Assembly: GCA_045631185.1 (NCBI GenBank)
Contig: JAZQUH010000039.1
Coordinates: 75,740-139,739, forward strand
DNA length: 64,000 nt
Reading direction: 5' to 3'
Source of the DNA: Alphaproteobacteria bacterium
Lineage (GTDB): Bacteria > Pseudomonadota > Alphaproteobacteria > CAAHEQ01 > UBA3637
Every line of letters starts with the position of its first letter. Within the stretch, counting starts at the first letter, position 1. The notes under the pieces were generated by a model, which was given only the letters and a program-made list of their open reading frames with translations, had not been told where the DNA came from and made no database searches. The position numbers were made by a program, and so were the translations under genes. This document shows positions 44,374-62,681 of this stretch, piece after piece.

Positions 44374-44433
44374 AAAAAATACTTGTAATATAAAAAAAAA
44401 GAGTGTATGTTTTTCTAAAACAGGGAGTACAAT

Positions 44434-46738: not shown

Positions 46739-46748
46739 AGGAGTCCGT

Positions 46749-48987: not shown

Positions 48988-49002
48988 AAATTTGGTGCTG
49001 AG

Positions 49003-50952: not shown

Positions 50953-50964
50953 GGAAGGTGTAAT

Positions 50965-52086
50965 ATGGCACAAGGAAAAAATGAGGTAAAATTAAAAGGC
51001 GGTGCGTTGGAATCAATTAATATGGCTTATGCCCAATTAATGGTTCGTTTGCATGCAACAGATCGATTAGAGATGTATCGTAAATTGGCGGCCCTTTTGA
51101 AAAACAGATTTTCTTTGATGGATGCTTTGGAACGTTTATATCAAATTGCTTCAAAAGACGGAAAAAGTCCTTCAGATACGATGGCCATGGCAGTAGCCAA
51201 TTGGATGTTAAAAATTCGAAATGGTCAGACTTTTTCGGAAGCATTACATGGTTGGGCTCCTTCTACCGAATTGTTATTGTTATCAGTGGGTGATGTTGCT
51301 AATTTGGAATTAGCCTTGGAACATACTGTACGCGTCGTTGAAGGCATGAACAAAATGCGCTCTTTGGTTTGGGGTGCTGTGGCTTATCCTTTGTTTTTGT
51401 TGTGTATGGTGGCTTTATTGATTTGGGGTGTGGCCAAGTTCATGGTGCCACCGATGAAGGAAGCCGTGCCGAATTTGGAATGGCAAGGGGTTGCAGGCTC
51501 ATTAATTGATTTGTCTAATTTTGTTGACCAGCACCCGATATTATTATTTTCTATTGTACCTGTAATTACTATCTGTATAATGATTACATTTCCATATTGG
51601 AAGGGTGCTGGTCGGGCAGCATTTGATAAATTTCCGCCATGGTCCATTTATCGTGGTTTTGTGGGGGTCAGCTGGTTGTTGGCTTTATCGGCTTTGGTGC
51701 GTGCTGGTATGCCTGTTTCCAAGGCTGTTCGTTCGCTACTGGGTGATGATTCAACTCCTTATTTAAAGTTTCGTTTAAATCGCACATTATTATTTATTAG
51801 TAATGGTGATAACTTAGGCGAAGCCTTATATCATACCCGCTTGGGATTTCCAGATGAAGAAGTAATAGGCGATTTACGGATTTATTCTGAGTTGGATACA
51901 TTTCCTGAAGCTTTGGAAAACTTGGCAACAGGTTGGTTGGAATCATCGGTTCGCACTATCGGGAAACAGGCGGAAATTTTAAACTCGATTGCCATTTTGG
52001 CCATTGCCGCTGTCATCGGTTGGGTGGTTTGGGGAACCTTTGCCATGCAGGATCAAATGGTCAGCGGTATGGGCTTGGGCGGTTAG
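50965..52086 (+). CDS. GspF/PilC-family inner-membrane platform protein (R64 PilR-like)
   Basis: 373 aa, duplicated cytoplasmic domain + 3 TM layout; AAGGAAGG RBS. Confidence 0.8.
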   Translation: MAQGKNEVKLKGGALESINMAYAQLMVRLHATDRLEMYRKLAALLKNRFSLMDALERLYQIASKDGKSPSDTMAMAVANWMLKIRNGQTFSEALHGWAPSTELLLLSVGDVANLELALEHTVRVVEGMNKMRSLVWGAVAYPLFLLCMVALLIWGVAKFMVPPMKEAVPNLEWQGVAGSLIDLSNFVDQHPILLFSIVPVITICIMITFPYWKGAGRAAFDKFPPWSIYRGFVGVSWLLALSALVRAGMPVSKAVRSLLGDDSTPYLKFRLNRTLLFISNGDNLGEALYHTRLGFPDEEVIGDLRIYSELDTFPEALENLATGWLESSVRTIGKQAEILNSIAILAIAAVIGWVVWGTFAMQDQMVSGMGLGG

Positions 52087-52262
52087 ACCGGTTTGGCGTT
52101 GCCGATATTTAAGGCACAAACATCCAAAACGTTTTTGATTTTTGAAACAACTTTATCGTCTTTGACATTGGGGGTAATGGCGGTTAAAACGCTGGCCCCC
52201 GTCACAATAGATGTTAAAGCGGTGATAAAGTCATAAAAATGATTGATGATAAAGTTTAACAT
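52083..52262 (-). CDS. Small membrane protein (holin-like), 59 aa
   Basis: Hand translation MLNFIINHFYDFITALTSIVTGASVLTAITPNVKDDKVVSKIKNVLDVCALNIGNAKPV; below ORF-track cutoff; last gene of lysis cassette. Confidence 0.4.
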   Translation of the reverse strand: MLNFIINHFYDFITALTSIVTGASVLTAITPNVKDDKVVSKIKNVLDVCALNIGNAKPV

Positions 52263-52271
52263 TTTATTCTC

Positions 52272-52520
52272 CTATTTTAAAATAAGGTTTAACAAAGCCA
52301 TAATCAGGGCAGTGCCTGTTGTGGCCACGATAATGGTAATTAAATTTTTAATCGGTGTAATTTCATTTTTTAAAACAAACTCTTGTTTTAAATTGGCATA
52401 TAGTGTGTCAACCTGTTGTTTGATTTCACCAAGTTGTTGTTGCAATAATGAAACGGACGCCATCAATTTGCCGATTTCTATGGATAGACTGGGGGCAGGC
52501 ATATCAGACTCCTTAAACAT
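52272..52520 (-). CDS. Tail-anchored coiled-coil protein (holin/spanin-like)
   Basis: 82 aa; coiled coil then C-terminal TM ITIIVATTGTALIMALLNLIL; 8-nt overlap with hydrolase gene. Confidence 0.45.
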   Translation of the reverse strand: MFKESDMPAPSLSIEIGKLMASVSLLQQQLGEIKQQVDTLYANLKQEFVLKNEITPIKNLITIIVATTGTALIMALLNLILK

Positions 52521-52917
52521 TTTTATAAAATAAATGATTGCCGATTTGGGCGCATGGGATTAAATGTCTGGCCCACAGGGGATGACATTCAAAGGTGTGA
52601 TAGTGCGTGGCCCCGTTTGTGTTATCCTTTAATACACCGGCTAAAGCTCTTTTAACGATTCTTTGGCAAATTTGATAAACGGGATTTTCGGATAAATCGC
52701 CTGTTAAAATTTTGTAATTGACATCATTGTGATTCCAACATGAAAATTGTTTGGGCTTTAAACATACTTCACGGATATTTTTGCCCCACCACATCGGTTG
52801 GATCAGATTCATTTTGACACGATTTAAAATAACATTGGCAACGGCTTCTTGACCGGCCAAAGATTCGCCACGGGCTTCACCGTAAATTGTTTTTGAAAAG
52901 ATTTCTTCTTCTGTCAT
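52513..52917 (-). CDS. SleB-type cell wall hydrolase (endolysin)
   Basis: TIYGEARGE..AVANVILNRV, QFSCWN, THYH..IGNHLFY (Hydrolase_2 pattern). Confidence 0.8.
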   Translation of the reverse strand: MTEEEIFSKTIYGEARGESLAGQEAVANVILNRVKMNLIQPMWWGKNIREVCLKPKQFSCWNHNDVNYKILTGDLSENPVYQICQRIVKRALAGVLKDNTNGATHYHTFECHPLWARHLIPCAQIGNHLFYKNV

Positions 52918-52929
52918 TTATTATTCTCC

Positions 52930-54321
52930 TTATCGCCACAGGGGGCGTTGTTTATAAAAAAGCGGTAAAGTTTTCAATCGAACGGGTTCGCTTAACAAAC
53001 ATCCCGCCACGGCATCCAAACCATCATCATGGGTATTTCCGGTTGAATTAAAATCTTGCATTTCCCGAATAAAAGGTGTTTTTAAAACACTTTCATGGGC
53101 ATATAGGTTGCCGTTTAACAAAGGTGGCTCTATGGCCCCTAAAATGCGTTCGGTTTTATTTTGTCGGGCTGTTTCTTCCAATACGGCAATGGCCAAGCGT
53201 TGGCGGGATAATTCCTGACGCAACAGGGCCGGTAAGAATCGCCCGATACCGTTTGTTTCCAAATGAATGGCCGGCAACATCAATTCTTTTAAAAACTGAA
53301 CAACTTTTTGGCATTGATAAGAGGTTGCTTCTTCATTTTCGGGAACGGTTAAATATAATAATTGATGAATGTAATGAAAACCAGTTGCATCCGAAAAAAC
53401 GCCCGCTACGACACTTTTATCGCCACCGACTTTACCAAAGGCCGGATCCCACCAGGCACATCCCGAAACCAATCGCCGAGAATTTAATTTTAAGACGGCC
53501 TGACCATTGGCTTCGGTATAATCCAGATTATCCGAATAAATTTTTAATTTTCTTTCATCCAAGCGTTGTTTATCAAAGGCCACCGCCTCTAACATCATTT
53601 GGCTTAAAAATTTAAAACGTGGGGTTGTTTGTTTTATTTGATTTATTTTATCCACAGAAAATCTTTCGGGCCAAGTGGCCAAGCCTGATGCATCCATAAT
53701 CGGTAATTTTAAAAGTTTCCAATTTGGTTGATTGTAAATACTTTGGCGTGTATGGGGTGTGCCGATATACAAAATCAATCCGTCGGGTGACAGGATATAA
53801 TCCAATTCGGCCAGTTTTTGTTTTAAATCTTCACGTTTGCCGGCTGTATCACATGTTTTGGGTACTTCCACATCATCACATAAAATGATATCAGCCCGAC
53901 ATCCTGTGATATTGGCACTTAAACCACGGGCCAAAACGGACGGATCACGACCACCGGCGGGACGTTGAACGGTCAATTTATCACCGGCCCATTCTTCGGC
54001 TTTTTCGGGCTTTAATCCATGACACAGAGGATGGCGTTCCAAAATATGTTTGATATGACGCACCATTTTTTGCGCCAAAGCGTGATCGGCCGATAAAACC
54101 AATAATCTTAAATTGGGATTTTGCGTTAAAACCCACGCACAAAACAAACCGACGATGGTTGATTTTCCTGAATTGCGAAAGGCCATTAAAACGGCCTGTC
54201 TGCGTCCTTGTGAAAAATAAAGTTCAGACAAAAAACGGCCCATTATTTTGTGGTGATTTGGAATGGATAAATTTTGGATTTTATCCCAAATCCATACGAA
54301 TTCCAGAAATGTCGTTTTCAT
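52930..54321 (-). CDS. Phage terminase large subunit
   Basis: Walker A RNSGKST, Walker B IILCDDVE, C-terminal nuclease HDDGLDA. Confidence 0.85.
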   Translation of the reverse strand: MKTTFLEFVWIWDKIQNLSIPNHHKIMGRFLSELYFSQGRRQAVLMAFRNSGKSTIVGLFCAWVLTQNPNLRLLVLSADHALAQKMVRHIKHILERHPLCHGLKPEKAEEWAGDKLTVQRPAGGRDPSVLARGLSANITGCRADIILCDDVEVPKTCDTAGKREDLKQKLAELDYILSPDGLILYIGTPHTRQSIYNQPNWKLLKLPIMDASGLATWPERFSVDKINQIKQTTPRFKFLSQMMLEAVAFDKQRLDERKLKIYSDNLDYTEANGQAVLKLNSRRLVSGCAWWDPAFGKVGGDKSVVAGVFSDATGFHYIHQLLYLTVPENEEATSYQCQKVVQFLKELMLPAIHLETNGIGRFLPALLRQELSRQRLAIAVLEETARQNKTERILGAIEPPLLNGNLYAHESVLKTPFIREMQDFNSTGNTHDDGLDAVAGCLLSEPVRLKTLPLFYKQRPLWR

Positions 54322-54571
54322 CTTTTAAATCCTCTTTGGCCTGATGAATCAAATCCAATAAATCGGTTTGATTGGTGGGTTGTTTTTTGGGTGCTATATC
54401 CAAAATTTTAATCAATAAAGCAATATGCAACAGTGCCGATTTACATGCACTGTGATAGGCGTTAAAATCTTTGGCATTCATGGGGCAATCGGCATTGGCA
54501 AAGGATTGATATGTTTGAACGGCTTTTTCCAAAAAAGGTTTCATTTTTTTCAGATAGGCCTTCATACGCAC
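54281..54571 (-). CDS. Phage hypothetical protein (possible small terminase, unproven)
   Basis: ORF-track start is GTG; first ATG at 54565; helical 94-96 aa; overlaps TerL start. Confidence 0.35.
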   Translation of the reverse strand: MRMKAYLKKMKPFLEKAVQTYQSFANADCPMNAKDFNAYHSACKSALLHIALLIKILDIAPKKQPTNQTDLLDLIHQAKEDLKDENDISGIRMDLG

Positions 54572-55048
54572 CTACTTAATCATTGTACGGCTGATACCGC
54601 CGGCCAAATTACCCAAAGTGCCATACATATTATTTTGGCTGGCCTGATTGATGCTGTTTAATTTTAACAGGTTTGTACCGGTGGAATGATTCAAGCTGTT
54701 TAACAGGGCATCCGATGATATTTTGGCCTGATTGACCAAGTATTTATCCTCCATATCATATTCCCTTTGCATGGCGTTTAAATAAGTTTGCCCCGTTCCC
54801 GATTGACCGGATAATCCCGACGCCCCCAGTTTGGCTTTATAACTGGCCTGTTGTTGAGCCAACAAATTTTTGTTTCTTCGTTGTCTTTCATTTAACGCCA
54901 ATTGTGCTTGTTTATCCTGTAAAGCGGCCTGTTCGGCGGCATAGGCATTGGAACGTTTGATGGCTTTTTTTTGACGATCGGCATTGGCTTTTGTATAATA
55001 AGCCGAACCCAAGATTGAGACGGCTGTGGCAATAACTGCTGCTTCCAT
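54572..55048 (-). CDS. Phage internal-virion-like protein, Q/N-rich with N-terminal anchor
   Basis: 158 aa; MEAAVIATAVSILGSAYY hydrophobic N-terminus; AGGAGG RBS. Confidence 0.4.
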   Translation of the reverse strand: MEAAVIATAVSILGSAYYTKANADRQKKAIKRSNAYAAEQAALQDKQAQLALNERQRRNKNLLAQQQASYKAKLGASGLSGQSGTGQTYLNAMQREYDMEDKYLVNQAKISSDALLNSLNHSTGTNLLKLNSINQASQNNMYGTLGNLAGGISRTMIK

Positions 55049-55049
55049 A

Positions 55050-56975
55050 TTATCCTCCTATTTTAATATCACTGATAACCGAAACCAATTGAAAAGGCAG
55101 AGGTTGCTTGCCTTGAATAATCCATAAAGGTTCGGTCGGATTTCTTTTCCATCCCAATCCCCGTACAACAATATCTGTTGTTTTGGTGCTGGGGGCACTG
55201 TCCAAAATATAATTATTCAGACTTTCGTTCATTTCCTGATGTAATCCGCAACCGGTGTCTATTTCAAAACTTTTGGTATTGATTAAACGAAATACGCCCC
55301 TGACAAAGCGACATGATGCCACCGGTGCAGAACCGTTGCTGGCACCGGCTGAGGCGGGCAAGGGAACAATTTTATGCGAAAAGCCTAAACCGTATTGTAG
55401 TTTTTGGGCATTGATATTTAACCGAACCGTTCCGGTTGAAATATCCTGATTTTCCTGAACACGTCCATCGGCCAATAATTGCACATTCCATCCGTTTAAA
55501 TAATCCAAACCGTCCCAATCCATTTGTGGCGTTTGGCTTGTTTGATTTTGGGCCAAATCCATATACATTTCATCATCCATTTTTTCCAAATAAAATTTAT
55601 CTTTTCTTTGTGTAATGAAATAGGTGGATTTCCCTGAAACGGCAACATTTAAAAATTTGCCTTGCGTTTTATGACGTGTCCAACTTTGGATATCTTCACC
55701 CCTAAAACTGGTCAAAGCACTTAATGAACCGTCCTGCATGATGATATAGGCCTGACGTTGATATTTATCATAGGCCATATCCACCGGATGATTGATGACA
55801 TGGTGGGCCAGCAAAGATAAATCGGTAGCCTGATAGATGCCTTCCAAATCCGAAAACAAAAATTCACGGATTTCTTTGCCATTGGCACTGGCAAAAATGG
55901 TGGCACCGTCAATGCCCACCGGCGGGATATAATTTTCATCAGGTGAGCCCACCTGAGTTTGGCGGTGTAATTGAATGGATTCGGGGGTTAAAGGATTACC
56001 CGATACCATCCATTCGGCACCGGTTGTAAAAACCTGTAAATGCCGACCGGAAAACAAGGCGGTGATTTTATTACCCTGATTGGACATCAACGAAAAACAG
56101 ATGGCTTCGTTATCCAGTGCTGTTCCTTCTTCAAAGTTACCCAAGTCATTACTTTGGCTGAACCATAATGTATTGGGTAAACTTTTGGATCCGCCAAAAA
56201 CCAATCGGGATTGATAAGTGGCAACCGTTGCCGGCCATCCGCGTTCATCGCTCCATGCAACTTCACCCCAATATCTTGTGGCTTCTAATTTTGTTTCTTT
56301 TGTGGCATCTTCATCATCCAACAATTTTTTTAAAACGGTTGCATTGGCATGTTGATTATCACTGACGGCTGTGATTTTGACATAACCGGCGCCTAATTTG
56401 AAAACCTGATTCAAATGTTTGCTTTCAAATAAAGGTGCATTGGCTGTTAAAGTAACCGAATCCAAACATCCGCTGGATGAAATGGATATGTTTTTATCAT
56501 TAAAACGGTGATAGGGGATATGCATATATCCGTTTTGGTTTAAAAATTCAAAGCTTTTTATTTGCCATTGACCGTTATCCAATTTGATATGTTGTGGGGC
56601 AAAATCGGGATGCACGATAATCACGCCATCCGATAGGCAAGCCCAACGAATTTGGCGAATATCTTCATCATCCCAGGGGGTTGTGAGAGTGCTAATCAAA
56701 ATATCGTTTTGAAAAATCTTCGTTTGATTATTTTGTATAACCAATAAATAAGTATGTGAACTATCTTGCTCATAACCGATTAAACGTCCTTTTGTTTGTA
56801 ATTCAAAAATGTATTTTAATCCGGGTCGGCGATGAACACCGCCGGTGGGTTCAATAAAAACATTTTCCAAAATTTGTGCACCGTTATGATAGCTGGTTAA
56901 ATCCACCCGTCCCAATAAATCGGGAGATAATTCACCGGCCGTGAAATTTGTTTTGGCGGTAAACATATTTGTCAT
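55050..56975 (-). CDS. Podovirus tail tubular protein B / nozzle-like
   Basis: 641 aa following a 189-aa protein after capsid (T7 gp11/gp12 order); N-terminus FTAGELSPDLLGRVDLTSYHNGAQ; ATGA overlap upstream. Confidence 0.5.
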   Translation of the reverse strand: MTNMFTAKTNFTAGELSPDLLGRVDLTSYHNGAQILENVFIEPTGGVHRRPGLKYIFELQTKGRLIGYEQDSSHTYLLVIQNNQTKIFQNDILISTLTTPWDDEDIRQIRWACLSDGVIIVHPDFAPQHIKLDNGQWQIKSFEFLNQNGYMHIPYHRFNDKNISISSSGCLDSVTLTANAPLFESKHLNQVFKLGAGYVKITAVSDNQHANATVLKKLLDDEDATKETKLEATRYWGEVAWSDERGWPATVATYQSRLVFGGSKSLPNTLWFSQSNDLGNFEEGTALDNEAICFSLMSNQGNKITALFSGRHLQVFTTGAEWMVSGNPLTPESIQLHRQTQVGSPDENYIPPVGIDGATIFASANGKEIREFLFSDLEGIYQATDLSLLAHHVINHPVDMAYDKYQRQAYIIMQDGSLSALTSFRGEDIQSWTRHKTQGKFLNVAVSGKSTYFITQRKDKFYLEKMDDEMYMDLAQNQTSQTPQMDWDGLDYLNGWNVQLLADGRVQENQDISTGTVRLNINAQKLQYGLGFSHKIVPLPASAGASNGSAPVASCRFVRGVFRLINTKSFEIDTGCGLHQEMNESLNNYILDSAPSTKTTDIVVRGLGWKRNPTEPLWIIQGKQPLPFQLVSVISDIKIGG

Positions 56976-57541
56976 GCGCGTACCTCAATCAAAGAAAAAT
57001 CCTGAAAGCAGGGGTTTATGGATTGTTGTGAATCCACTAATCTGGCCTGTTTTAATTCTTCGGCGGCAATTTTACGCATATAATCCGTGCGCGTTGTGCT
57101 TTCGGTTAAAGGCAGACAAAATTCGCTGGCCAACTGGGTGATAAAGGCCTTTACAAAAAAAGGCGGAAAAGTGCTTTCATCGGGTTTTTCAATATAATTT
57201 AAAATAACTTTTGGTGTATTGGCGTACAGGCATTTACCCACAATTTTATATTGTAATCCCGAACTTTTGATATTTTGTCCGGCCGATAAAATCCGCAAAC
57301 AATTATTGGGTAATTGAAAGGCGTATTGGTAATCCGAAACGGGTTTGTTTTCCAATCGGGCCAAATTTTTTTGTTTTAATGCAAAACGCCACGGATAGGA
57401 TGCCAATAAGTTTTCCAAGGTTGGTTGATACAATTGGGATGCCACGGTGGATTCACAGGACGTTTCATCAAAAGAAGAAATACTGTTGGCCCCCAATTCC
57501 ACCAAAGCACGAGAGCATAAATCAATGTTTGTGTATGACAT
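56972..57541 (-). CDS. Podovirus tail tubular protein A / adaptor-like
   Basis: Start moved to MSYTNIDL (AAAGGAAC RBS); 189 aa; position after the capsid terminator. Confidence 0.45.
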   Translation of the reverse strand: MSYTNIDLCSRALVELGANSISSFDETSCESTVASQLYQPTLENLLASYPWRFALKQKNLARLENKPVSDYQYAFQLPNNCLRILSAGQNIKSSGLQYKIVGKCLYANTPKVILNYIEKPDESTFPPFFVKAFITQLASEFCLPLTESTTRTDYMRKIAAEELKQARLVDSQQSINPCFQDFSLIEVRA

Positions 57542-57558
57542 ATTGTTCCTTTTGTATG

Positions 57559-57592
57559 AAAAAATCCCCCTTGGGATAAAACCAAAGGGGGA
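57559..57592 (-). terminator. Intrinsic terminator immediately after capsid gene
   Basis: Minus strand UCCCCCUU(U)GG-loop-CCAAGGGGGA + U6. Confidence 0.75.
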
Positions 57593-57611
57593 CAAATGGT
57601 AAAGATTTTTT

Positions 57612-58457
57612 TTAGACGGCCTTATCCAAGCAAACCATTTTGACAACACCGTTATCGTCAATCAGGCTGGCCCCTTGGCTCATCATGTTGTTCACATAAT
57701 GGGCGGCATAATCACCGTGCCATGTGATATCGGTTGTGATATCCTGACCAGCGGCCAAACCGACGGCTGATTTGTGATAGATAAAACAGGTTGTACAGGC
57801 TGAATCACCGGCACCTTCTGTGGGCAATCCGGTGTGCATAATCCAATTGATTCCCATCCATTTGCGTGTTTCGGAACCCGTCAACAACGGATGCGCATCA
57901 CCCACATAGTTGGCATTTGAAAATTCATCCAAGCTCAACAATTGATTCCATTGCGCCGGTCCCACCAAAGCATAGCGTTCACCATCATCGGGAACATTGG
58001 CGCTGTTGAGTTTTTGAAAGGCCTGCAAAATGCGTTCTTTGGTCAAACCTGTTGATCCATCACCGGCACTTTGTGTGGCATTTTCTAAAACGCAAATAAT
58101 CAATTCATCTGTTTTGCGTCCCAAAGCATAGGCACCGGCTGTGGCCAAAACTTTGCGTTCGTCATGGCCGACCTTTAATTCATCCAATTTGTCAATCCAT
58201 TGACCGGCATACCAATCGGACAAAGTACATTCCACCGGTGCGTGTGTGACGGCGGCGGGTGTCAATTGGGCATTGCGGGATGATTTTTGGTTGGCTGTTT
58301 GGGTGCCGATAACCTGAAAGGTTGTGCTGGAACCTGTAATACCGCCTTTAAAACGGACGGTGTTGCGTAATTTGGAACCTTGTTGTTGATAGGCTGTGTG
58401 GACATCGGCTTCAAAATGTTTTACAAATGAAGCGTCAATGGTGTTTGAAGTTGTCAT
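57612..58457 (-). CDS. Phage major capsid protein
   Basis: Start MTTSNTID with GGAGAA RBS; pattern FVKHFEADVHTAYQQQGSKLRNTV..YALGRKTDELI; position after scaffold. Confidence 0.65.
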   Translation of the reverse strand: MTTSNTIDASFVKHFEADVHTAYQQQGSKLRNTVRFKGGITGSSTTFQVIGTQTANQKSSRNAQLTPAAVTHAPVECTLSDWYAGQWIDKLDELKVGHDERKVLATAGAYALGRKTDELIICVLENATQSAGDGSTGLTKERILQAFQKLNSANVPDDGERYALVGPAQWNQLLSLDEFSNANYVGDAHPLLTGSETRKWMGINWIMHTGLPTEGAGDSACTTCFIYHKSAVGLAAGQDITTDITWHGDYAAHYVNNMMSQGASLIDDNGVVKMVCLDKAV

Positions 58458-58579
58458 TATTTTCTCCATATAGTTTTAAGTTTAAAAAATCCTTATCAAA
58501 GGTTGTGAAGAAAATCTTCGCCTTCATTCGGGCTGGTTAAGGTGCGGGGCGCTGGGCTTATCCGCAAAATAAAAAGGCT

Positions 58580-59233
58580 TTAACCGTATAAACGTTTAAA
58601 GCCTTTTTCAATACGGCCGACCAATTCGGGATCCTGATCTTTCCAATATTTTGGATCCTGCATCAATCGGCGTAAAGTTTTTTCATCATCCATGGGGTTG
58701 AGGCGACTTTTACCTTTGATAACAGGTGATTCCTGTTTTTCCTGCATCATGCGGTAAAGCGTTAAAACACCGTCTTTTGTGGATGATAAAATTTCAAAAG
58801 TTTTTTGATCTAAATTTTTTTCACCCCATGCGGATAATTCACGGGCGACATTGTTGAAATGTTCGGCACCGCCAAATTCGTCCTCCAAAGCTTTTAATTC
58901 TTTATCACATCCGACTTGACGGGCAAAATTTTCCAACTGGGGTAAAATAAAATCGGCCGCGATATCATAAACCCCTTGCACCTGTTCATTGGTCAATCCC
59001 AATTCAAACAATCGTTTGTTGATGATTAAATCGGATAGTAATAACGGGTCTTTCGGGGTAATTTTATAATCTTCGGCTTTGTTGGGGATGGTACCGTTTT
59101 GTGTTTGTCTGGGGGTGCTCATCTTTTTTTCCAAAGCCAAATAAGATTTTAACAATTCATCGGTATTTAATTTTCCTTCTTTGTTTAAAAATTTTTCGGG
59201 GATAGCGGGTGTTTCGTTGATTTGTTCACTCAT
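58580..59233 (-). CDS. Phage scaffolding protein
   Basis: Start MSEQINE (AAGGAA RBS); PEKFLNKEGKLNTDELLKSYLALEKK motif typical of scaffolds; helical, acidic. Confidence 0.6.
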   Translation of the reverse strand: MSEQINETPAIPEKFLNKEGKLNTDELLKSYLALEKKMSTPRQTQNGTIPNKAEDYKITPKDPLLLSDLIINKRLFELGLTNEQVQGVYDIAADFILPQLENFARQVGCDKELKALEDEFGGAEHFNNVARELSAWGEKNLDQKTFEILSSTKDGVLTLYRMMQEKQESPVIKGKSRLNPMDDEKTLRRLMQDPKYWKDQDPELVGRIEKGFKRLYG

Positions 59234-59249
59234 AAATAATTCCTTTTGT

Positions 59250-59447
59250 TTAAGGTTGTTTTCCATTTTGAATTAAACGTTCCATTGTGGCAATCAGGGC
59301 ACGTTGCCCTTCCAAATACCACAGTTCCTGATTACTGGCCTGAGGGGATAAAATTCGCCCTGATATTTTTTGACGCAAATAATTTAAAACGGTTTTACCG
59401 TCTGTTGTTTGGGCCAATCTGGTAAAAGCATGGGCAATACGAATCAT
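59250..59447 (-). CDS. Small phage protein (65 aa)
   Basis: MIRIAHAF start in ATGA overlap with portal stop. Confidence 0.4.
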   Translation of the reverse strand: MIRIAHAFTRLAQTTDGKTVLNYLRQKISGRILSPQASNQELWYLEGQRALIATMERLIQNGKQP

Positions 59448-60910
59448 GGTGTACTTTCGCTTGGTTGTAATTGAATAAAGTTGGCGGGCAATCCCATTTT
59501 TTCGGTCAGCCATTTTAATACTTCATTGGTGTTCATTTTGGCCAAAACATCATTACCCAAGCCGGCCACGGCGGATATCCATGCTAAAGCATTTTGAGCC
59601 TCTTTTTTGGATTGCATTTCGGCCCGTGGGGATTTATAGGTAATGTTTAACAACCGCCCGTCCAAAAAGATTTCAGGGATTTCGCCACGTTTGCGTAAAA
59701 TACCGACAGCCCGTTCAATTAAAGGTGTCAATAATTCGGATTGCAAACGGCCATAGGTGGCGCCCAAAATACGAATCATTTCTTCGCTTCGTTCCAAAAC
59801 TTCGGTGGCGGTCATTTTCATTTCATCACAAACCGTCCCCAATTTATCGCCCAACATTGCATGTCGGATGCGTTCACGCAAATCTTTGATAACCAATTGT
59901 GATACATCAAACTTGCCGGGGGCTTCCAAAGGCGTTAAACCTTTGGAGCCGACGGCTTTTGGAATAATCGCACCGGGGGTCAGATTGATGGTGGCGGGGT
60001 TGAGTACACCATCATCTTCGGCTAACCAGATACCTGTCACGGCAATCGTGGCGTTTTTCAAAATCAATTCCACGACTTTGTTGGCTGTTTTAATATCGGG
60101 TAAAGCTTTCATGACAGGGGAACGCCCGTAAATTTCCCCCGGTGCTTTCAGCCAGCGGAAAGCGATAAACGGCGAAGTGGTGTAATGTGTTTCGCTCAGG
60201 AGGAAAGGTGACTCCTGATTATCGCCTGAGAATGACTGGCAATTGGGATCTGAAAAGCAAGTATAAGTATAACCGCCTTTGGGGCAGGGGATTAAAGCCT
60301 CTATCACACGCAAAGGTGATTTATCGTCTTTATCCCGTTTGGGTAATTTGTTGGCGCCGAATTTGGCAACAAAGGATTCTTCATCCATGGCAAAGCTTCT
60401 GAAAACTTTATCCAATTTACCGTTATTACCTTCGGCTAAACAGATTTCGTTTAACGGAACGGCCGTAAATTTAAAGGCCGATGAAGAACCGATATCGCTT
60501 TGTTCAAATAATAAACAGGCTGTCCCGACCGTAATTAAATCCAAATAACATTGATGGATTTCCGTTGAAAAGTTGGATCTGTCCAAATGCGATTGCAAGG
60601 TGGCGGATATTTTTTCCAAAGTCGGGGCGATTTGAATTTTTTCTGTGGATGTCAATTCATCACCGGCGTTTAATTGGAACCATTGCACCCAAGGCGGTGT
60701 CAGTTCGCTCAACATTAAAGCGGCCAGCTGATCTGTTGCATCCAAAGCGGTGGCATCATACAGATTGGCAATTTTGTTTGCGCCGGGTAAAAAGGTTGTT
60801 TGTCGTGTCGGCAGGGCATAGGCATAGCATTCTTGCCAAACCGATTCCCAATCAGACCGCTGTTGCACGGCCTGTTGATACATTTGATACAGTTTTTTGA
60901 TATCGGACAT
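59444..60910 (-). CDS. Phage portal protein (T7 gp8 / head-tail connector type)
   Basis: Start MSDIKKLYQMY with AAAGGAGAA RBS; LYDATALDATDQLAALMLSELTPPWVQWFQL. Confidence 0.75.
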   Translation of the reverse strand: MSDIKKLYQMYQQAVQQRSDWESVWQECYAYALPTRQTTFLPGANKIANLYDATALDATDQLAALMLSELTPPWVQWFQLNAGDELTSTEKIQIAPTLEKISATLQSHLDRSNFSTEIHQCYLDLITVGTACLLFEQSDIGSSSAFKFTAVPLNEICLAEGNNGKLDKVFRSFAMDEESFVAKFGANKLPKRDKDDKSPLRVIEALIPCPKGGYTYTCFSDPNCQSFSGDNQESPFLLSETHYTTSPFIAFRWLKAPGEIYGRSPVMKALPDIKTANKVVELILKNATIAVTGIWLAEDDGVLNPATINLTPGAIIPKAVGSKGLTPLEAPGKFDVSQLVIKDLRERIRHAMLGDKLGTVCDEMKMTATEVLERSEEMIRILGATYGRLQSELLTPLIERAVGILRKRGEIPEIFLDGRLLNITYKSPRAEMQSKKEAQNALAWISAVAGLGNDVLAKMNTNEVLKWLTEKMGLPANFIQLQPSESTP

Positions 60911-60937
60911 TTTTTCTCCTTTGGGTTGATTACAACT

Positions 60938-60976
60938 AAAAATAGAAAAAAGGACCTTTCGTAAAACGAAAAGTCC
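60938..60976 (-). terminator. Intrinsic terminator between late promoter and portal gene
   Basis: Minus strand GGACUUUUCG-UUUUA-CGAAAGGUCC (10 bp, the single irregular pair is G.U only on this strand) + UUUUUUCUAUUUUU. Confidence 0.8.
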
Positions 60977-61010
60977 CTTTGGATACACTTCTAACTTTTA
61001 ATTGATTCGC

Positions 61011-61039
61011 ATTATAGCATAAATTTTTTCATTTGTCAA
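61011..61039 (-). promoter_or_regulatory. Consensus sigma70 late promoter
   Basis: Minus strand TTGACA - 17 nt - TGcTATAAT (perfect -35, -10 and extended TG). Confidence 0.75.
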
Positions 61040-61436
61040 GGAAAATTTTCCTTTTTTCTTTTTTTAAGGCTAAATACAGCTGATATGGTGTCCAAATTTT
61101 GGGGTTTGTCAGACCTAAAAAACGCTTGACGGTTTCCACACAGGTCATGGGTCTGAGATGAAAGGAAATTTTTTTTGGCATAACCAAAGTCGTGCGTACC
61201 AATTGGTATCCTTTGTTTTTTAAAATTTGGGGTGCGCACCTTTGATGCATTAAAATTAAATCGGTATAATGCATCACCGGATCAATTAAAATCCATTCAA
61301 AATCATTGCCGATTAAAAGGGCGCAATGATAAAAGCCTTTTTTTAAAAAACGGGTCCACCAATGCGTGGGATTGCCACCAAAGGCCACATAGGCAAAAGG
61401 AAAACGATAAGCGTTTACGGATGGTGTATAAATCAT
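61029..61436 (-). CDS. Phage early protein, 135 aa, unknown function
   Basis: AAGGAG RBS; conserved-looking Cys/His (FYHCALL.., MTCVETVKRFLG). Confidence 0.5.
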   Translation of the reverse strand: MIYTPSVNAYRFPFAYVAFGGNPTHWWTRFLKKGFYHCALLIGNDFEWILIDPVMHYTDLILMHQRCAPQILKNKGYQLVRTTLVMPKKISFHLRPMTCVETVKRFLGLTNPKIWTPYQLYLALKKEKRKIFLDK

Positions 61437-61451
61437 GTCAAACTCCTTTAT

Positions 61452-61811
61452 TTATGTGGCATAAACGATTCCTTTTTGTTTTAATAAATTGCCCAAAAAT
61501 TTTAATCCTTCATACCACAGGCGACAAATTTTCGGTGTATCGCCAAAATGTTCGTGTGGCGGAACTTGGGCAAAGCCGTATTTGGCCAAAACCTTTAAAT
61601 GTTCGGCTTTTAAAGTGCCGTTTTGCATCAATCTTTTAACGGCGATGGCGATATCGGCCGATTCGCACGGACGTGCAATTTTGGATTCTCCCCCACGGCT
61701 TCTTTCATGTTTTAAATTTTCGCATAAACAGTACCAAAACCACGCCTCTTCACTGGAAGAAAAAGGTGTTGTTTGTCTGTTGTCAACGGATGATAGATAT
61801 TTATTCTTCAT
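61452..61811 (-). CDS. Phage early protein, 119 aa, Cys/His-rich (candidate regulator)
   Basis: GAGGAG RBS; WFWYCLCENL, RPCES, PPHEHF, KICRLW. Confidence 0.5.
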   Translation of the reverse strand: MKNKYLSSVDNRQTTPFSSSEEAWFWYCLCENLKHERSRGGESKIARPCESADIAIAVKRLMQNGTLKAEHLKVLAKYGFAQVPPHEHFGDTPKICRLWYEGLKFLGNLLKQKGIVYAT

Positions 61812-61848
61812 ATTTTTCTCCTCGGTTTATAAAAAAAGAACAAAACGA

Positions 61849-61877
61849 GAACTAACATATTTTTTTATGAATGTCAA
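61849..61877 (-). promoter_or_regulatory. Early promoter (divergent from repressor promoter)
   Basis: Minus strand TTGACA - 17 nt - TAGTTC. Confidence 0.4.
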
Positions 61878-61926
61878 GAGGGAAATAAGAAAAAAATCCT
61901 ATTGACAAACATTTGAAAATATGTTA
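61853..61926. promoter_or_regulatory. Candidate operators in the switch region
   Basis: AACAT-N8-ATGAA (61854-61871) and AACAT-N8-ATGTT (61908-61925) each fill a promoter spacer; 11-bp inverted repeat TAACATATTTT / AAAATATGTTA. Confidence 0.4.
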
Positions 61927-61930
61927 AAGT
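61902..61930 (+). promoter_or_regulatory. Repressor gene promoter
   Basis: TTGACA - 17 nt - TAAAGT. Confidence 0.55.
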
Positions 61931-61960
61931 GATTTACAACTAAAAAGAGAAAGGAATAAG

Positions 61961-62596
61961 ATGCAACTTTCGTATAATGAAATTTGGCTGGGTTTGGAAA
62001 ATCTGGCACAAAATAAGGGAATGTCTTTGTCGGCATTGGCGCAAAAGGCCGGTTTGGATCCCACCAGTTTTAATAAATCCAAGCGTATTGGGGCGGATGG
62101 GCGCAAACGTTGGCCGTCCACCGAAAGTATGAATAAGGTTTTAAAGGCCACCAACACCACGGTCTTTGAATTTATGGAATTGGCGGGGCAACCGTGTCCG
62201 ACACCCAAAAATATGATTCCTTTGTTGGGATTGGCCAAAGCGGGACGGGAAGGTTATTTCGATTCGGACGGTTGGCCAATTTTATCGGGCGATTGGGATG
62301 CGGTTGAATTTCCTTTGACAATCGATAAGCGAGTTTACGCTTTGGAAGTTTCGGGTAACAGTATGGAGCCTGTCTATCGTGAAGGTGATAAATTGATTGT
62401 GGCGCCCGATTCGGAAATCCGCCGTGGCGACCGTGTAATTGCCAAAACCATATCGGGCGAAGTGATGGTGAAAGAATTTCAACGCCGATCCATGAATCAA
62501 GTGGAATTAAAATCACTCAATCCTGATTGTGAAGATGTCTATTTGAATCCGTCTGATATCGCATGGATGGCCCGTGTAATTTGGGTCAGCCAATAG
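61961..62596 (+). CDS. CI/LexA-like repressor: HTH + S24 peptidase
   Basis: N-terminal HTH (MSLSALAQKAGLDPTSFNKSKR); S24 GNSMEPVYREGDKLIV with downstream catalytic Lys (VMVKEF). Confidence 0.8.
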   Translation: MQLSYNEIWLGLENLAQNKGMSLSALAQKAGLDPTSFNKSKRIGADGRKRWPSTESMNKVLKATNTTVFEFMELAGQPCPTPKNMIPLLGLAKAGREGYFDSDGWPILSGDWDAVEFPLTIDKRVYALEVSGNSMEPVYREGDKLIVAPDSEIRRGDRVIAKTISGEVMVKEFQRRSMNQVELKSLNPDCEDVYLNPSDIAWMARVIWVSQ

Positions 62597-62681
62597 TTTT
62601 CCTTTTTGATTTTTTTGCTTGCAATTGATGTGAAAGTATGCTAAACATCAAACAGTTTTTATAAAAACCAAGGAGTTTTAG

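Follow-up and report, generated by a model that had tools for sequence, protein, structure and literature searches.

The window, i. e. the whole 64-kb stretch of DNA that was analysed, contains a cluster of about 10.5 kb between positions 52083 and 62596. It consists of 14 intact genes in one orientation (minus strand) and a divergently transcribed S24 repressor gene, 15 genes in total. The minus-strand open reading frames listed in a preliminary description of this DNA are all present, the gene identities proposed there were confirmed by profile matches (Pfam, PHROG), and the two ATGA overlaps (59447-59444 and 56975-56972) are real. As had also been described, cellular genes lie on both flanks. 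The left neighbour is an operon for a type IVb pilus; its T2SSF gene has its end at 52086 and shares 4 nt with the last gene of the cluster. The right neighbours are two small genes without known function. Further genes of the window are dnaE, truB, rbfA, smpB, alaS and ppdK. The features of the cluster are:

61961 to 62596, plus strand: repressor with a weak XRE-type helix-turn-helix and an S24 self-cleaving peptidase domain (PF00717 Peptidase_S24, E 1e-23; phrog_4)
61812 to 61960, no strand: divergent regulatory region, with blocks kept across about 25 orthologous intergenic regions
61838 to 61852, minus strand: LexA-type box GTTCTCGTTTTGTTC, an exact fit to the alphaproteobacterial consensus GTTC-N7-GTTC
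61452 to 61811, minus strand: early gene e119, for a small protein of four helices that is restricted to this family of elements
61029 to 61436, minus strand: early gene e135, for an alpha/beta protein in which, by alignment, His36 and Cys98 are invariant and Cys37 nearly so
61011 to 61039, minus strand: late promoter with TG extension, TTGACA-17 nt-TATAAT, matching at 12 of 12 positions
60948 to 60980, minus strand: intrinsic terminator (15-bp stem and T-run), placed in the leader after the late promoter and before the ribosome-binding site of the portal gene
60930 to 60942, minus strand: first copy of the 13-mer TTTTTAGTTGTAA, just past the late terminator
59444 to 60910, minus strand: portal, T7 gp8 type (PF12236, E 8e-124, full length)
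59250 to 59447, minus strand: Bbp19-like protein, 65 aa (PF25181, E 9e-8), coupled to the portal gene by an ATGA overlap
58580 to 59266, minus strand: scaffolding protein of the T7 gp9 type (PF05396 with 30.1 bits, cut-off 27.1)
57612 to 58469, minus strand: major capsid protein (PF19821, E 7e-70)
56972 to 57541, minus strand: adaptor or tail tubular protein A in the gp11 position, 189 aa (phrog_394 'tail protein', E 9e-51)
55050 to 56975, minus strand: nozzle or tail tubular protein B, gp12 type, 641 aa (PF25675, 30.5 bits against a cut-off of 27)
54572 to 55048, minus strand: gp14-like internal or ejection protein, 158 aa (PF24072 T7_gp14, E 3e-5, 24.4 bits, under the cut-off of 27)
54281 to 54571, minus strand: 96-aa ORF, helical with an acidic tail, which lies immediately upstream of TerL and overlaps it (phrog_31793, function unknown, E 1e-12)
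52930 to 54321, minus strand: large terminase, TerL (phrog_38, E 6e-77; weak match to PF22530, T7 RNaseH-like)
52513 to 52917, minus strand: cell-wall hydrolase, an endolysin of the SleB / Hydrolase_2 type (PF07486, E 5e-22)
52272 to 52520, minus strand: 82-aa coiled-coil protein with a C-terminal transmembrane segment, position kept in the compact clade, dN/dS about 0.09
52083 to 52262, minus strand: 59-aa membrane protein, last gene, convergent with the pilus T2SSF gene (phrog_9685, E 1e-9)

The cluster codes for a complete head of the T7 supergroup, for a short tail tube made of adaptor and nozzle, for a single gp14-like ejection protein and for an ATPase-nuclease that serves packaging, and it contains a lysis cassette. 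The most probable start codon of the portal gene is the ATG at 60910, which follows an AAGGAG ribosome-binding site, and not the GTG at 60988. The capsid gene is the best conserved structural gene (dN/dS 0.02-0.10). The nozzle has full-length tblastn matches in tail tubular B genes of podophages, and 1350 proteins are related to it at E <= 1e-20. The gp14-like protein, which has an N-terminal hydrophobic segment, is the sole ejectosome-type gene product of the cluster, and the ORF at its position clusters across 91 loci. In TerL the Walker A (RNSGKST), Walker B (ILCDDVE) and nuclease (HDDGLDA) motifs are intact. The preliminary description had found no recognisable small terminase, and indeed the 96-aa ORF in the small-terminase position has no similarity to T7 gp18 or to any PDB sequence. 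It adjoins TerL in both compact and expanded loci and is, by position only, a small-terminase candidate. Likewise, the 82-aa protein is a candidate lysis accessory protein and the 59-aa membrane protein a candidate holin.

The element has no means to replicate, integrate or excise. Profile searches of the cluster bore out the reported absence of integrase, replication genes, large ejection proteins and tail fibre: there were zero matches to an integrase or a replication gene, and no tail-fibre homolog was found for the window copy. Excisionase, primase and transposition genes were not found in the cluster, nor did the profile searches reveal a toxin or bacteriocin domain. The 64-kb window contains no tRNA gene, and no direct or att repeats were found flanking the element. 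The codon usage of the cluster is host-like (cosine to the host 0.971; 0.950 between one half of the host genes and the other).

Relatives of the nozzle are encoded in at least 570 genomic stretches, the carriers being mostly metagenome-assembled genomes. The same 15 genes in the same order make up 38 compact loci and occur in more than 25 species-level genomes of gut and rumen Alphaproteobacteria. In the free-living carriers that were examined (Thalassospira, Acetobacteraceae, Magnetospirillum, Micavibrio) the cluster measures 12-20 kb and includes a tail fibre. We examined 166 related loci (80 genomic loci, 80 IMG/VR contigs and 6 metagenome-assembly loci). All of these relatives are 10-20-kb clusters without integrase or replication genes; none of them belongs to a prophage of about 40 kb, and no integrase was called in any annotated locus. 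The flanks of the compact loci are housekeeping genes that are syntenic within clades. Related genomes carry the short cluster at the same chromosomal sites and with the same neighbours, which are pilQ-pilR and the 178/199-aa genes in seven species, lnt and atpCD in nine and lon-dnaN-recF in one. As the flank synteny differs between clades, some relocation has occurred. Divergence of the cluster follows that of its flanks (Pearson r 0.94 for pilQR, 0.82 for atpD and 0.92 for lnt), and the cluster is better conserved than Lnt. In a tree of portal, capsid, nozzle and TerL the loci group by host taxon.

Most genes are under purifying selection with a dN/dS of about 0.1, a check that the preliminary description had proposed. 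Compared with the ortholog locus L005, at unsaturated dS (0.3-0.8), dN/dS was 0.06-0.13 for 13 genes, 0.29 for Bbp19 and 0.46 for the 96-aa ORF. That the orthologs are recent horizontal copies of one sequence is excluded by their divergence of 40-96%. The cluster is kept intact by selection and is inherited with the chromosome in hundreds of alphaproteobacterial species.

These data bear on the possibility that the element has no function and is the remnant of a prophage that was recently truncated or is decaying. It does lack many phage functions, and the nozzle ortholog of L011 carries a nonsense codon, as would be expected of a remnant. However, of the 25 full-length compact loci 23 have all their genes intact, the gene set and its order are retained at protein identities as low as about 43-50% with the low dN/dS given above, the regulatory sites are conserved, and none of the 166 loci is a longer version. 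We consider a remnant hardly credible. A minimal autonomous temperate virus, which would package its own genome of about 10.5 kb and re-enter by homologous recombination or a host recombinase, would account for the complete head and packaging set, the lysis genes and the CI-like switch. IMG/VR pipelines do call relatives proviruses, and a 5-kb relative from human faeces was deposited as 'Bacteriophage sp.'. Yet the 80 IMG/VR contigs, all of 22 kb or less and with provirus calls that begin at the repressor or e119, include neither terminal repeats nor circular forms. Together with the lack of replication, integration and transposition genes, the missing fibre of the compact clade, the syntenic positions and the co-divergence with the host, this makes such a virus very improbable.

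The control regions are conserved as well. The repressor has the Ala-Gly site, the serine (GNSMEP) and the lysine (VMVKEF) in its sequence. It is not a canonical LexA; its match to TIGR00498 lexA (40.8 bits, cut-off 110.95) covers the C-terminal domain only. Across the compact clade it is 65-90% identical (43% for the outlier L031), a degree of conservation much like that of the capsid, and its dN/dS is 0.03-0.09. Phage immunity genes usually diversify, and in its conservation the repressor is thus unlike them. In the divergent region, P_rep (plus strand) has TTGACA at 61902-61907 and TAAAGT at 61925-61930, and P_early (minus strand) has its -35 TTGACA at 61877-61872; the conserved block CAATAGGAtttttttCTTATT (61904-61884) lies between the -35 boxes of the two promoters. 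The LexA-type box overlaps the -10/+1 region of P_early. Its consensus (quoted in PMC3091678) is matched exactly in 54 of 65 orthologous intergenic regions, compact and expanded, the expectation being 0.008 per 170 bp.

Downstream of the early genes, the stop codon of e135 overlaps the -35 of the late promoter, and CCTTGACA-N17-TGnTATAAT is kept throughout the compact clade. The conserved leader boxes CAGTTAAAAG and AGAAGTGTATCC precede the terminator. A hairpin of -10 kcal/mol or stronger with a T-run stands before the portal gene in 83 of 101 loci, with unrelated stem sequences. The 13-mer TTTTTAGTTGTAA has exactly two exact copies in the 64-kb window, both within the control regions of the element; the second (61934-61946) lies beside the start codon of the repressor. 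In orthologs the core TTTTTAGTTG is kept at both sites, and the 13-mer is a candidate operator.

Neither early protein has a recognisable antiterminator or activator fold. For e119 there was no match in Pfam, NCBIfam or PHROG, no tblastn match among 50,697 phage records and, for its AF2 model (pLDDT 83), no fold match in the PDB. In a library of 1.84 billion proteins it accounts for 477 clusters at 50% identity, its position is identical in compact and expanded loci, and it is a candidate regulator or antiterminator. The e135 model (pLDDT 86) likewise has no fold match in the PDB. In BFVD it matches uncharacterised phage proteins (E 4e-8, TM 0.72), and tblastn found e135 in 50 Vibrio podophages; e135 is phage-derived.

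Another explanation is a satellite of the capsid-forming-PICI type, which would make its own heads, package itself and borrow fibres and ejection proteins from a helper podophage to spread. The small size of 10.5 kb would suit this, as would the combination of head, packaging and part of the tail with missing fibre and large internal proteins. On the other hand, the integrase, excisionase, primase, replication gene and att repeats are all missing, one chromosomal site is kept across species with co-divergence of the flanks, the repressor does not diversify as an immunity gene would, codon usage is fully host-like, and no close enough helper phage is known, the best matches being 25-33% identical. 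A satellite is therefore improbable.

The preliminary description had preferred a host-retained, GTA-like particle module, and this option is the best supported one, given the lack of prophage-sized relatives among the loci examined, the syntenic sites and the purifying selection. We consider it probable, with some reservation, that the element is not a prophage but a compact member of a large, anciently domesticated family of podovirus-derived clusters in Alphaproteobacteria and a candidate GTA-like element ('viriform'). If so, it would be a previously undescribed, DNA-damage-inducible GTA-like system rather than a dead or ordinary prophage; no description of it was found in the literature searched.

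Such an element could work as follows. In the undamaged cell a repressor on the LexA-type box, be it the host LexA, the adjacent self-cleaving S24 protein or both, would shut the early promoter. DNA damage would activate RecA, the repressor would cleave itself, and e119 and e135 would be expressed. One of them may let RNA polymerase from the strong late promoter pass the terminator about 45 nt downstream, by a logic like that of lambda Q at PR'-tR' or of GafYZ of the Caulobacter GTA, and read-through would switch on the 12-gene late operon. Proheads would assemble on portal and scaffold, and the terminase would fill them with any DNA at hand, which would have to be chromosomal, as the element is unable to replicate. 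After addition of the tail tube, holin and lysin would lyse the producer cell. As the cluster family has no large inner-membrane-spanning ejection proteins (gp15/gp16 type), delivery would probably end in the periplasm of the recipient and need its uptake functions, as with RcGTA. The tail-fibre gene of the free-living relatives is missing from the cluster in the window's lineage, where receptor binding might be encoded elsewhere, as in RcGTA and FpGTA, or be dispensed with.

With no fibre or spike and a single small ejection protein in the window copy, adsorption and DNA delivery are unexplained, which is a point against a GTA-like element.

Possibly, the particles carry DNA but are selected for killing competitors or for releasing DNA or public goods, as in an SOS-induced killer or altruistic-lysis module like PBSX, and not for gene transfer. 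The LexA-type box and the self-cleaving repressor point to induction by DNA damage, the lysis cassette is retained, productive DNA injection is doubtful in a clade without fibre or large ejection proteins, and there are precedents in PBSX and possibly FpGTA (discussed in PMC12946183). But strong purifying selection acts on the portal, scaffold, capsid and terminase genes alike, which speaks for the importance of heads filled with DNA; a fibreless short podovirus tail is not an obvious killing device, and no toxin or bacteriocin domain was found. We regard this explanation as unlikely, though worth keeping in mind, and compare the GTA-like candidate with known systems below.

The nearest true phages are 23-33% identical (most 25-33%); an unannotated 5-kb faecal contig, the 'Bacteriophage sp.' mentioned above, reaches 51.5% on the portal. 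Temperate podophages, namely Vibrio phage CKB-S2 and its relatives, HTVC010P-type pelagiphages (portals 30-33% identical) and Bordetella BPP-1, share with the element homologous portal, Bbp19-like, scaffold, capsid, adaptor, nozzle and terminase genes, and in Vibrio phages the e135 homolog adjoins the portal gene as it does here (in CKB-S2 it lies between the terminase and portal genes). The earlier label 'T7-like' holds for the structural module only; it does not extend to a phage RNA polymerase, which is missing, and the nearest phages are the HTVC010P-type pelagiphages, BPP-1 and Vibrio podophages of about 33 kb. In contrast to the 10.5-kb element, these podophages have genomes of 32-42 kb. 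The annotated genome of CKB-S2 (34.7 kb) has an integrase, large internal virion proteins (about 700-1060 aa) and about 25 small genes without annotation. The element has lost all of these and has gained e119, the LexA-type box and a fixed chromosomal residence.

PBSX of Bacillus is likewise an SOS-inducible, repressor-controlled, non-replicating particle cluster kept in its host lineage, induction and particles being predicted from the genes in the case of the element. PBSX packages random host DNA. It is a contractile-tailed, myovirus-like killing agent and is unrelated to the element in sequence and host phylum. BaGTA of Bartonella is also a domesticated phage cluster of Alphaproteobacteria that is conserved across its host lineage, but its gene order and families do not match: its terminase stands beside a 620-aa portal, its capsid differs, and it is coupled to run-off replication (PMC3610622).

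The statement in the preliminary description that described GTAs all derive from long-tailed phages is outdated by the podovirus-like, GTA-like FpGTA of Faecalibacterium, reported in 2026 (PMC12946183). Like the element, FpGTA resides in a gut bacterium and has a core of 10.5 kb, an operon derived from the short-tailed-phage type (terminase, portal, scaffold, capsid) that lacks replication genes. Its fibre, receptor-binding and lysis genes form a separate operon about 125 kb away (PMC12946183), a precedent for the missing fibre of the element, whose lysis genes lie inside the cluster. By its description FpGTA is set apart from the element: it belongs to Firmicutes, starts with the terminase genes and has a different gene set. 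It is supported experimentally by 40-nm particles, 8.5-9 kb of host DNA and proteomics (PMC12946183), whereas the element is known from genes alone.

RcGTA-type elements (Rhodogtaviriformidae: Rhodobacter capsulatus, Caulobacter CcGTA) resemble the element in being alphaproteobacterial phage-derived head-tail-packaging clusters of about 10-15 kb without integrase or replication genes, in vertical inheritance, purifying selection, host-like codons and, as read from the genes of the element, a tie to host stress regulation. The lack of inner-membrane ejection proteins parallels the periplasmic delivery of RcGTA, and the promoter-terminator leader resembles the control of the CcGTA cluster by activation and anti-termination (PMC11150451). 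The element was found in Rhodospirillales and Acetobacteraceae; a GTA-Hunter table based on GTDB gives zero predicted RcGTA-like clusters for Rhodospirillales, Acetobacterales and Azospirillales (PMC6821227). The ancestors are unrelated. RcGTA is HK97/siphovirus-like: its terminase gene comes first, and it has a prohead protease and a long tail with a tape measure. The gene order of the element is that of T7 (portal, scaffold, capsid, adaptor, nozzle and, at the end, terminase), and it lacks both protease and long tail; and where RcGTA is controlled by CtrA and GafA, the element has a dedicated S24 repressor and a LexA-type box.

The part of the window from 48 to 64 kb was mapped for ORFs, which gave 14 minus-strand ORFs running from 61811 to 52083 and one divergent ORF on the plus strand (61961-62596). 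This map and the profile matches agree with the preliminary description, which had reported a co-oriented 14-gene cluster with a divergent repressor; both ATGA overlaps that it had named proved real when checked in the sequence. The profile matches were as follows.

Cluster genes and their profile matches
Portal, minus strand: PF12236, E 8e-124
Bbp19-like small protein, minus strand: PF25181
Scaffold, T7-type, minus strand: PF05396
Capsid, minus strand: PF19821, E 7e-70
Adaptor, minus strand: phrog_394, E 9e-51
Nozzle, minus strand: PF25675
gp14-like protein, minus strand: PF24072, weak (24.4 bits against a cut-off of 27)
Large terminase (TerL), minus strand: phrog_38, E 6e-77
Lysin, Hydrolase_2, minus strand: PF07486
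Two small membrane proteins, minus strand: the final one of the cluster matches phrog_9685
Repressor, HTH-S24, 61961-62596, plus strand: PF00717 and phrog_4

The head, tail tube, packaging and lysis genes are all intact in the window. According to the profile matches the T7 order is kept, i.e. portal, scaffold, capsid, gp11 adaptor and gp12 nozzle, with the terminase late; the portal gene most likely starts with the ATG at 60910. No cluster ORF matched integrase, replication, RNA polymerase or tail-fibre families in Pfam, PHROGs or NCBIfam, and excision functions were likewise without match among the cluster ORFs in these databases. The window contains no tRNA gene, and no att-like or flanking direct repeats were found at the element. 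The earlier statement that integrase, replication and fibre genes are lacking is borne out by these results. DNA polymerase, primase and single-subunit RNA polymerase are absent from the cluster; the two early ORFs, e119 (61452-61811, minus strand) and e135 (61029-61436, minus strand), gave no such match either. Internal proteins of gp15 or gp16 size and a gp17 fibre were not found in the window, and the ejectosome is represented by the weak gp14-like protein alone. Known RNA families (Rfam) were not detected anywhere in the window. The preliminary description had recognised no small terminase, and similarity searches gave none: profile comparison of s96, the 96-aa ORF upstream of TerL, with T7 gp18 yielded a probability of 0.2%, and comparison with PDB sequences lent no support. 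What has to be added is that s96 holds the position of a small terminase, so that its assignment stays positional. As judged from sequence, the T7-type character of the cluster is confined to its structural module.

The cellular flanks reported before were found as well: dnaE, truB, rbfA, smpB, alaS, ppdK and a type IVb pilus operon lie in the window as chromosomal neighbours. The pilus set (43609-52086, plus strand) encodes a TcpQ-like protein, a secretin, PilO, a coiled-coil protein of 309 aa, an ATPase (T2SSE) and a platform protein (T2SSF); genes for a pilin or a prepilin peptidase are missing downstream of it. The T2SSF gene is convergent with the last cluster gene, with an overlap of 4 nt. 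At the related locus L030, pilus genes adjoin the opposite (repressor) end of the cluster. No other long run of minus-strand genes occurs in this part of the window, so the cluster runs against the prevailing gene orientation there. In the flanks, where coding is on the plus strand, GC skew is strongly positive (0.1-0.3); over the cluster (52000-62600) it is close to zero. The AlaRS ORF (41077-42846, plus strand) encodes 589 aa with the catalytic and SAD domains, and the usual C-terminal region is missing; about 760 bp separate its end from the next long ORF (at least 120 aa) at 43609. The gene may be split, or the enzyme may be naturally short, as in a reduced genome.

Synteny in related genomes and purifying selection, both of which the preliminary description had proposed to examine, were found. 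The flanks are conserved within clades: the arrangement of the window, with pilQ-pilR, the cluster and genes for 178-aa and 199-aa proteins, is common to seven species, and the arrangement of lnt, the cluster and atpC-atpD to nine. Cluster divergence, calculated from portal, capsid, adaptor, nozzle and TerL, correlates with the divergence of pilQR (Pearson r 0.94, 28 pairs), atpD (0.82, 21 pairs) and lnt (0.92, 45 pairs); vertical descent was judged on the flanking genes alone. The cluster is better conserved than Lnt. Between the window and L005, its closest relative, where dS is 0.3-0.8 and hence unsaturated, 13 genes have a dN/dS of 0.06-0.13, with Bbp19 at 0.29 and s96 at 0.46. Over 12 pairs nearly all genes show values of 0.02-0.17, and for most genes the eleven pairs other than that with L005 are similar to it or lower; higher values, 0.2-0.4, occur in some of the more diverged pairs for the small genes Bbp19, scaffold, s96, gp14 and lysin. 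Every gene is intact in 23 of the 25 full-length loci of the window's compact form, and in one locus a nonsense codon interrupts the nozzle gene. By codon usage the cluster is indistinguishable from the host genes: the cosine between cluster and host is 0.971, compared with 0.950 between halves of the host gene set. The repressor is conserved about as well as the capsid. Phage immunity genes are usually not conserved to that level. When four proteins from each of 92 loci were concatenated for a neighbour-joining tree, the loci grouped according to host (Thalassospira, Acetobacteraceae, Magnetospirillum, Micavibrio-like and gut/rumen groups), with the compact form in one large deep clade and two small independent lineages.

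This evidence excludes a decaying remnant or a recent truncation. The freshly truncated prophage, one of the options of the preliminary description, has to be given up because the same 15 genes recur in the same order among relatives and are under purifying selection. A phage satellite (PICI, capsid-forming PICI or P4-like), which would have its own integrase and replication initiator or primase and would be mobile, with derepression in response to a helper, is strongly argued against by the absence of these genes in the profile searches and by the chromosomal location, which is fixed across species. An autonomous virus is strongly argued against, too. The element has no self-propagation functions, is inherited vertically with its host and is under purifying selection, as is asked of a GTA. 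We consider it highly probable that it is a domesticated, selected and vertically inherited module.

The nozzle counts 1350 relatives among database proteins at E <= 1e-20, and its identity to the best 120 is 43-98%. These are mostly 630-645 aa long (a handful are truncated fragments), and many of them lie on 100-650 kb MAG contigs named 'Alphaproteobacteria bacterium'. Three relatives that were looked up, two of them 50-54% and one 45% identical, share all 15 genes and their order; they are flanked by the housekeeping genes lnt and trmA-aspS, by lnt and the ATP synthase operon, and by lon-dnaN-recF. None of the four annotated relatives inspected had a called integrase. With one genome per GTDB species, 570 genomic stretches with a nozzle relative were confirmed among the 600 pattern matches listed, and all 15 window proteins were mapped on the best 80 of at least 570 loci. 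The carriers so far belong to Rhodospirillales-type orders, Acetobacteraceae, Micavibrio-like predators and uncultured gut/rumen lineages. Cultured carriers, all of the expanded form described below, are many Thalassospira species (T. tepidiphila and T. povalilytica among them), Elioraea tepidiphila, Belnapia, Falsiroseomonas (F. stagni), Siccirubricoccus, Roseicella and Paramagnetospirillum marisnigri SP-1; in cultured carriers the cluster genes are labelled as 'hypothetical' or 'phage' proteins. Three loci, L020 (CAYPVK010000004.1), L047 and L057, have titles that say Lactobacillales or Pseudobdellovibrionaceae and contain the same alphaproteobacterial cluster, which in L020 is flanked by lnt and atpCD. 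They are probably mis-binned or mis-labelled MAG contigs.

The loci show two architectures. In the compact one (38 loci), which is that of the window, nozzle and TerL lie 613-851 bp apart; in the expanded one (83 loci) their distance is 2-7 kb, most often 3.0 kb. The expanded order matches the compact one: repressor, e119, e135, portal, Bbp19, scaffold, capsid, adaptor, nozzle and gp14-like gene, followed by the extra genes, s96, TerL and lysin. The main extra gene in typical expanded loci of about 3 kb encodes a tail fibre or spike whose N-terminal domain is conserved (MTEHIKIGD..P..Y.A.G.QT.F.YPFPIF) and whose C-terminus varies; a pectate-lyase domain is present in one such fibre. Further genes are found where the interval is longer. 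Genes of gp15 or gp16 size were found neither in the compact form nor in the inspected expanded intervals of about 3 kb. Expanded relatives also carry extra small genes within the structural operon, e.g. a reverse-strand PilZ-domain gene (2798-3181 of locus L085, minus strand), and several small, moron-like ORFs lie between scaffold, capsid, adaptor and nozzle; the compact form is without them.

For the window's clade no tail fibre was found in the cluster, within up to 10 kb around it in relatives, or in the 64-kb window; nine fibre proteins of expanded relatives, used as tblastn queries, gave chance matches only. The absence of the fibre in this clade is the main difficulty. Since RcGTA and also FpGTA, a podovirus-like GTA-like element of Faecalibacterium, keep such genes at distant loci (for FpGTA see PMC12946183), the missing fibre alone is no argument against function.

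The 80 relatives in IMG/VR are at most 22 kb long, none of the 80 has terminal repeats or is circular, and the provirus calls typically start exactly at the repressor or e119. The genomic relatives are short, too. The possibility raised before, that relatives carry these genes only as parts of full-length prophages of about 40 kb, is therefore not what we found: no such relative is among the loci examined, these are compact or expanded and, where annotated, without an integrase, and the nearest true phages are only distant.

The 149-bp region between the repressor and e119 contains two divergent TTGACA promoters. The control features of the element are as follows.

Control features of the element
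61852-61838, minus strand: GTTCTCGTTTTGTTC, exact GTTC-N7-GTTC, the alphaproteobacterial LexA-box consensus; overlaps the early-promoter -10/+1
61904-61884: CAATAGGA, conserved block between the -35 boxes in the early control region
61039-61011, minus strand: late promoter, a perfect (12/12) sigma-70 promoter, TTGACA-17-TGcTATAAT, between e135 and the portal gene
60980-60948, minus strand: strong intrinsic terminator, about 30 nt past the late promoter and before the portal ribosome-binding site
60930-60942 and 61934-61946, minus strand: 13-mer TTTTTAGTTGTAA, two exact copies in 64 kb, both in control regions

The consensus GTTC-N7-GTTC is quoted in PMC3091678. Of 65 orthologous regions, 54 have an exact box, in either orientation, in the corresponding position, against an expectation of 0.008 per 170 bp; the box-bearing regions come from both architectures and range from about 40% to 70% GC. 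The S24 protein has the Ala-Gly, Ser and Lys motifs of self-cleavage. It was considered as the host LexA and rejected, as its lexA equivalog score is far under the cut-off and stems from the peptidase domain alone, and there was no PDB sequence match. The early promoter carries a LexA-type consensus box, and the element also keeps an S24 repressor of its own; control by the host is possible.

At the late promoter the -35 box is overlapped by the stop codon of e135. The promoter and the leader boxes CAGTTAAAAG and AGAAGTGTATCC are conserved in the compact clade, where the leader hairpin keeps its structure with a wholly different sequence from locus to locus; a hairpin of <= -10 kcal/mol with a T-run is present family-wide, in 83 of 101 loci. 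One copy of the 13-mer TTTTTAGTTGTAA follows the late terminator and the other adjoins the repressor start codon. Its core is conserved at both places in orthologs, and it may be an operator.

Neither e119 nor e135 matched an entry of Pfam, NCBIfam or PHROGs even at E <= 10, comparison of their profiles with PDB sequences gave nothing significant, and their models had no PDB neighbour with E < 0.3. e119, which has a confident four-helix AF2 model, belongs to a family of 477 clusters at 50% identity; it showed no PDB neighbour in fold and no homolog in phage records. e135 has a confident alpha/beta AF2 model with invariant His and Cys residues and clear relatives among uncharacterised podophage proteins adjoining the portal gene. 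Its assignment as a permuted papain-like/NlpC-P60 cysteine peptidase was dropped, the Foldseek hits (3kw0, Josephin) being weak and non-significant (E > 0.6).

A strong late promoter, a close terminator and a candidate regulator gene just upstream make up a layout of the lambda Q type. Neither e119 nor e135 is recognisable as a Q-family antiterminator; by analogy, the logic may be the same as that of lambda Q with a protein that is not recognisably Q. Control of the Caulobacter GTA by activation and anti-termination is reported in PMC11150451. As the layout of promoter and terminator is that of lambda PR'-tR' and recalls this control, we infer a cascade from damage to the late operon. DNA damage would derepress the early promoter, e119 and e135 would be made, one or both of them would allow read-through of the leader terminator, and the late operon would then be expressed.

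What would follow can be predicted from the genes. Since the element has no replication gene, its terminase would be limited to chromosomal DNA, the only abundant substrate. Delivery by the particles may stop at the periplasm, as for RcGTA; this is suggested by the lack of gp15/gp16-type proteins in the compact and the inspected 3-kb expanded loci. The most likely of the remaining interpretations is a host-retained, SOS-inducible module that is predicted to build DNA-filled, short-tailed particles and to lyse the cell. A PBSX-like device, serving to kill or to lyse, is less likely. On balance we favour a combined explanation, an anciently domesticated, SOS-inducible, GTA-like cluster derived from a podovirus. 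GTAs are reportedly defined, by Lang et al. 2012 and Kogay et al. 2022, by particles with random host DNA of less than the encoding length. That the element actually transfers genes is quite possible, if just short of probable. Only tentatively do we propose the fullest version, i.e. a new, independently domesticated GTA family from a T7-supergroup podovirus, switched on by damage through a lock of LexA box and S24 repressor, with antitermination by e119/e135 and periplasmic delivery to kin, and maybe the source of the Azospirillum particles discussed below.

To our knowledge only a handful of GTA families exist, and the picture in alphaproteobacteria is dominated by the siphovirus-like RcGTA lineage. 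We take the finding for a GTA-like lineage that arose independently, from a podovirus, and has a control circuit of a new kind. If this is true, GTA-like systems arise repeatedly and from differing virion architectures, and there was a second, unrelated and equally ancient domestication, from a short-tailed phage. Capsid-mediated gene exchange would extend to gut/rumen Alphaproteobacteria and predatory Micavibrio-like bacteria. The carriers include orders (GTDB Rhodospirillales, Acetobacterales and Azospirillales) for which GTA-Hunter predicted no RcGTA-like clusters (PMC6821227). The annotation of 10-20-kb 'proviruses' in carrier genomes would change, since IMG/VR now lists such loci as viruses. 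The circuit is compact and genetically tractable: it comprises an SOS box and a self-cleaving repressor, two small proteins of a new kind, and a leader with promoter and terminator. Cultured carriers exist (Thalassospira, Elioraea, Belnapia). The fibre-less clade poses the question of how a podovirus-type particle without fibre or large ejection proteins is yet selected.

Among true phages the nearest are HTVC010P-type pelagiphages, BPP-1 and Vibrio podophages of about 33 kb, with 23-33% identity (most 25-33%). The 34.7-kb genome of one of the Vibrio phages, CKB-S2, encodes an integrase and internal virion proteins of 700-1060 aa, besides about 25 small genes that lack annotation. Near-identical DNA was not found in phage and plasmid collections. 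The portal of MT838907.1, an unannotated 'Bacteriophage sp.' sequence of 5084 bp from human faeces, is 51.5% identical to that of the window; either cluster DNA reaches virome preparations or the viral label was given by sequence alone.

Azospirillum lipoferum 4B and Azospirillum sp. B510 release particles with about 10 kb of DNA upon mitomycin C treatment, those of 4B containing random host fragments; the locus that encodes the particles was reportedly never identified (PMC3899980, PMC2818188). No family member was found on a plasmid or chromid in PLSDB, Azospirillum chromids included. The element family may be the source of these mitomycin-inducible particles.

Full-text literature searches found no published description of this alphaproteobacterial family. 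BaGTA was considered as one and rejected for its different gene order and content, as was the 'ancient prophage' of Sphingomonadales, which is RcGTA-like. The element itself is not RcGTA-like, since RcGTA differs in ancestry and gene order. The earlier view that long-tailed phages are the ancestors of all described GTAs is outdated by FpGTA, which comes from another phylum and is described with a different gene set (PMC12946183).
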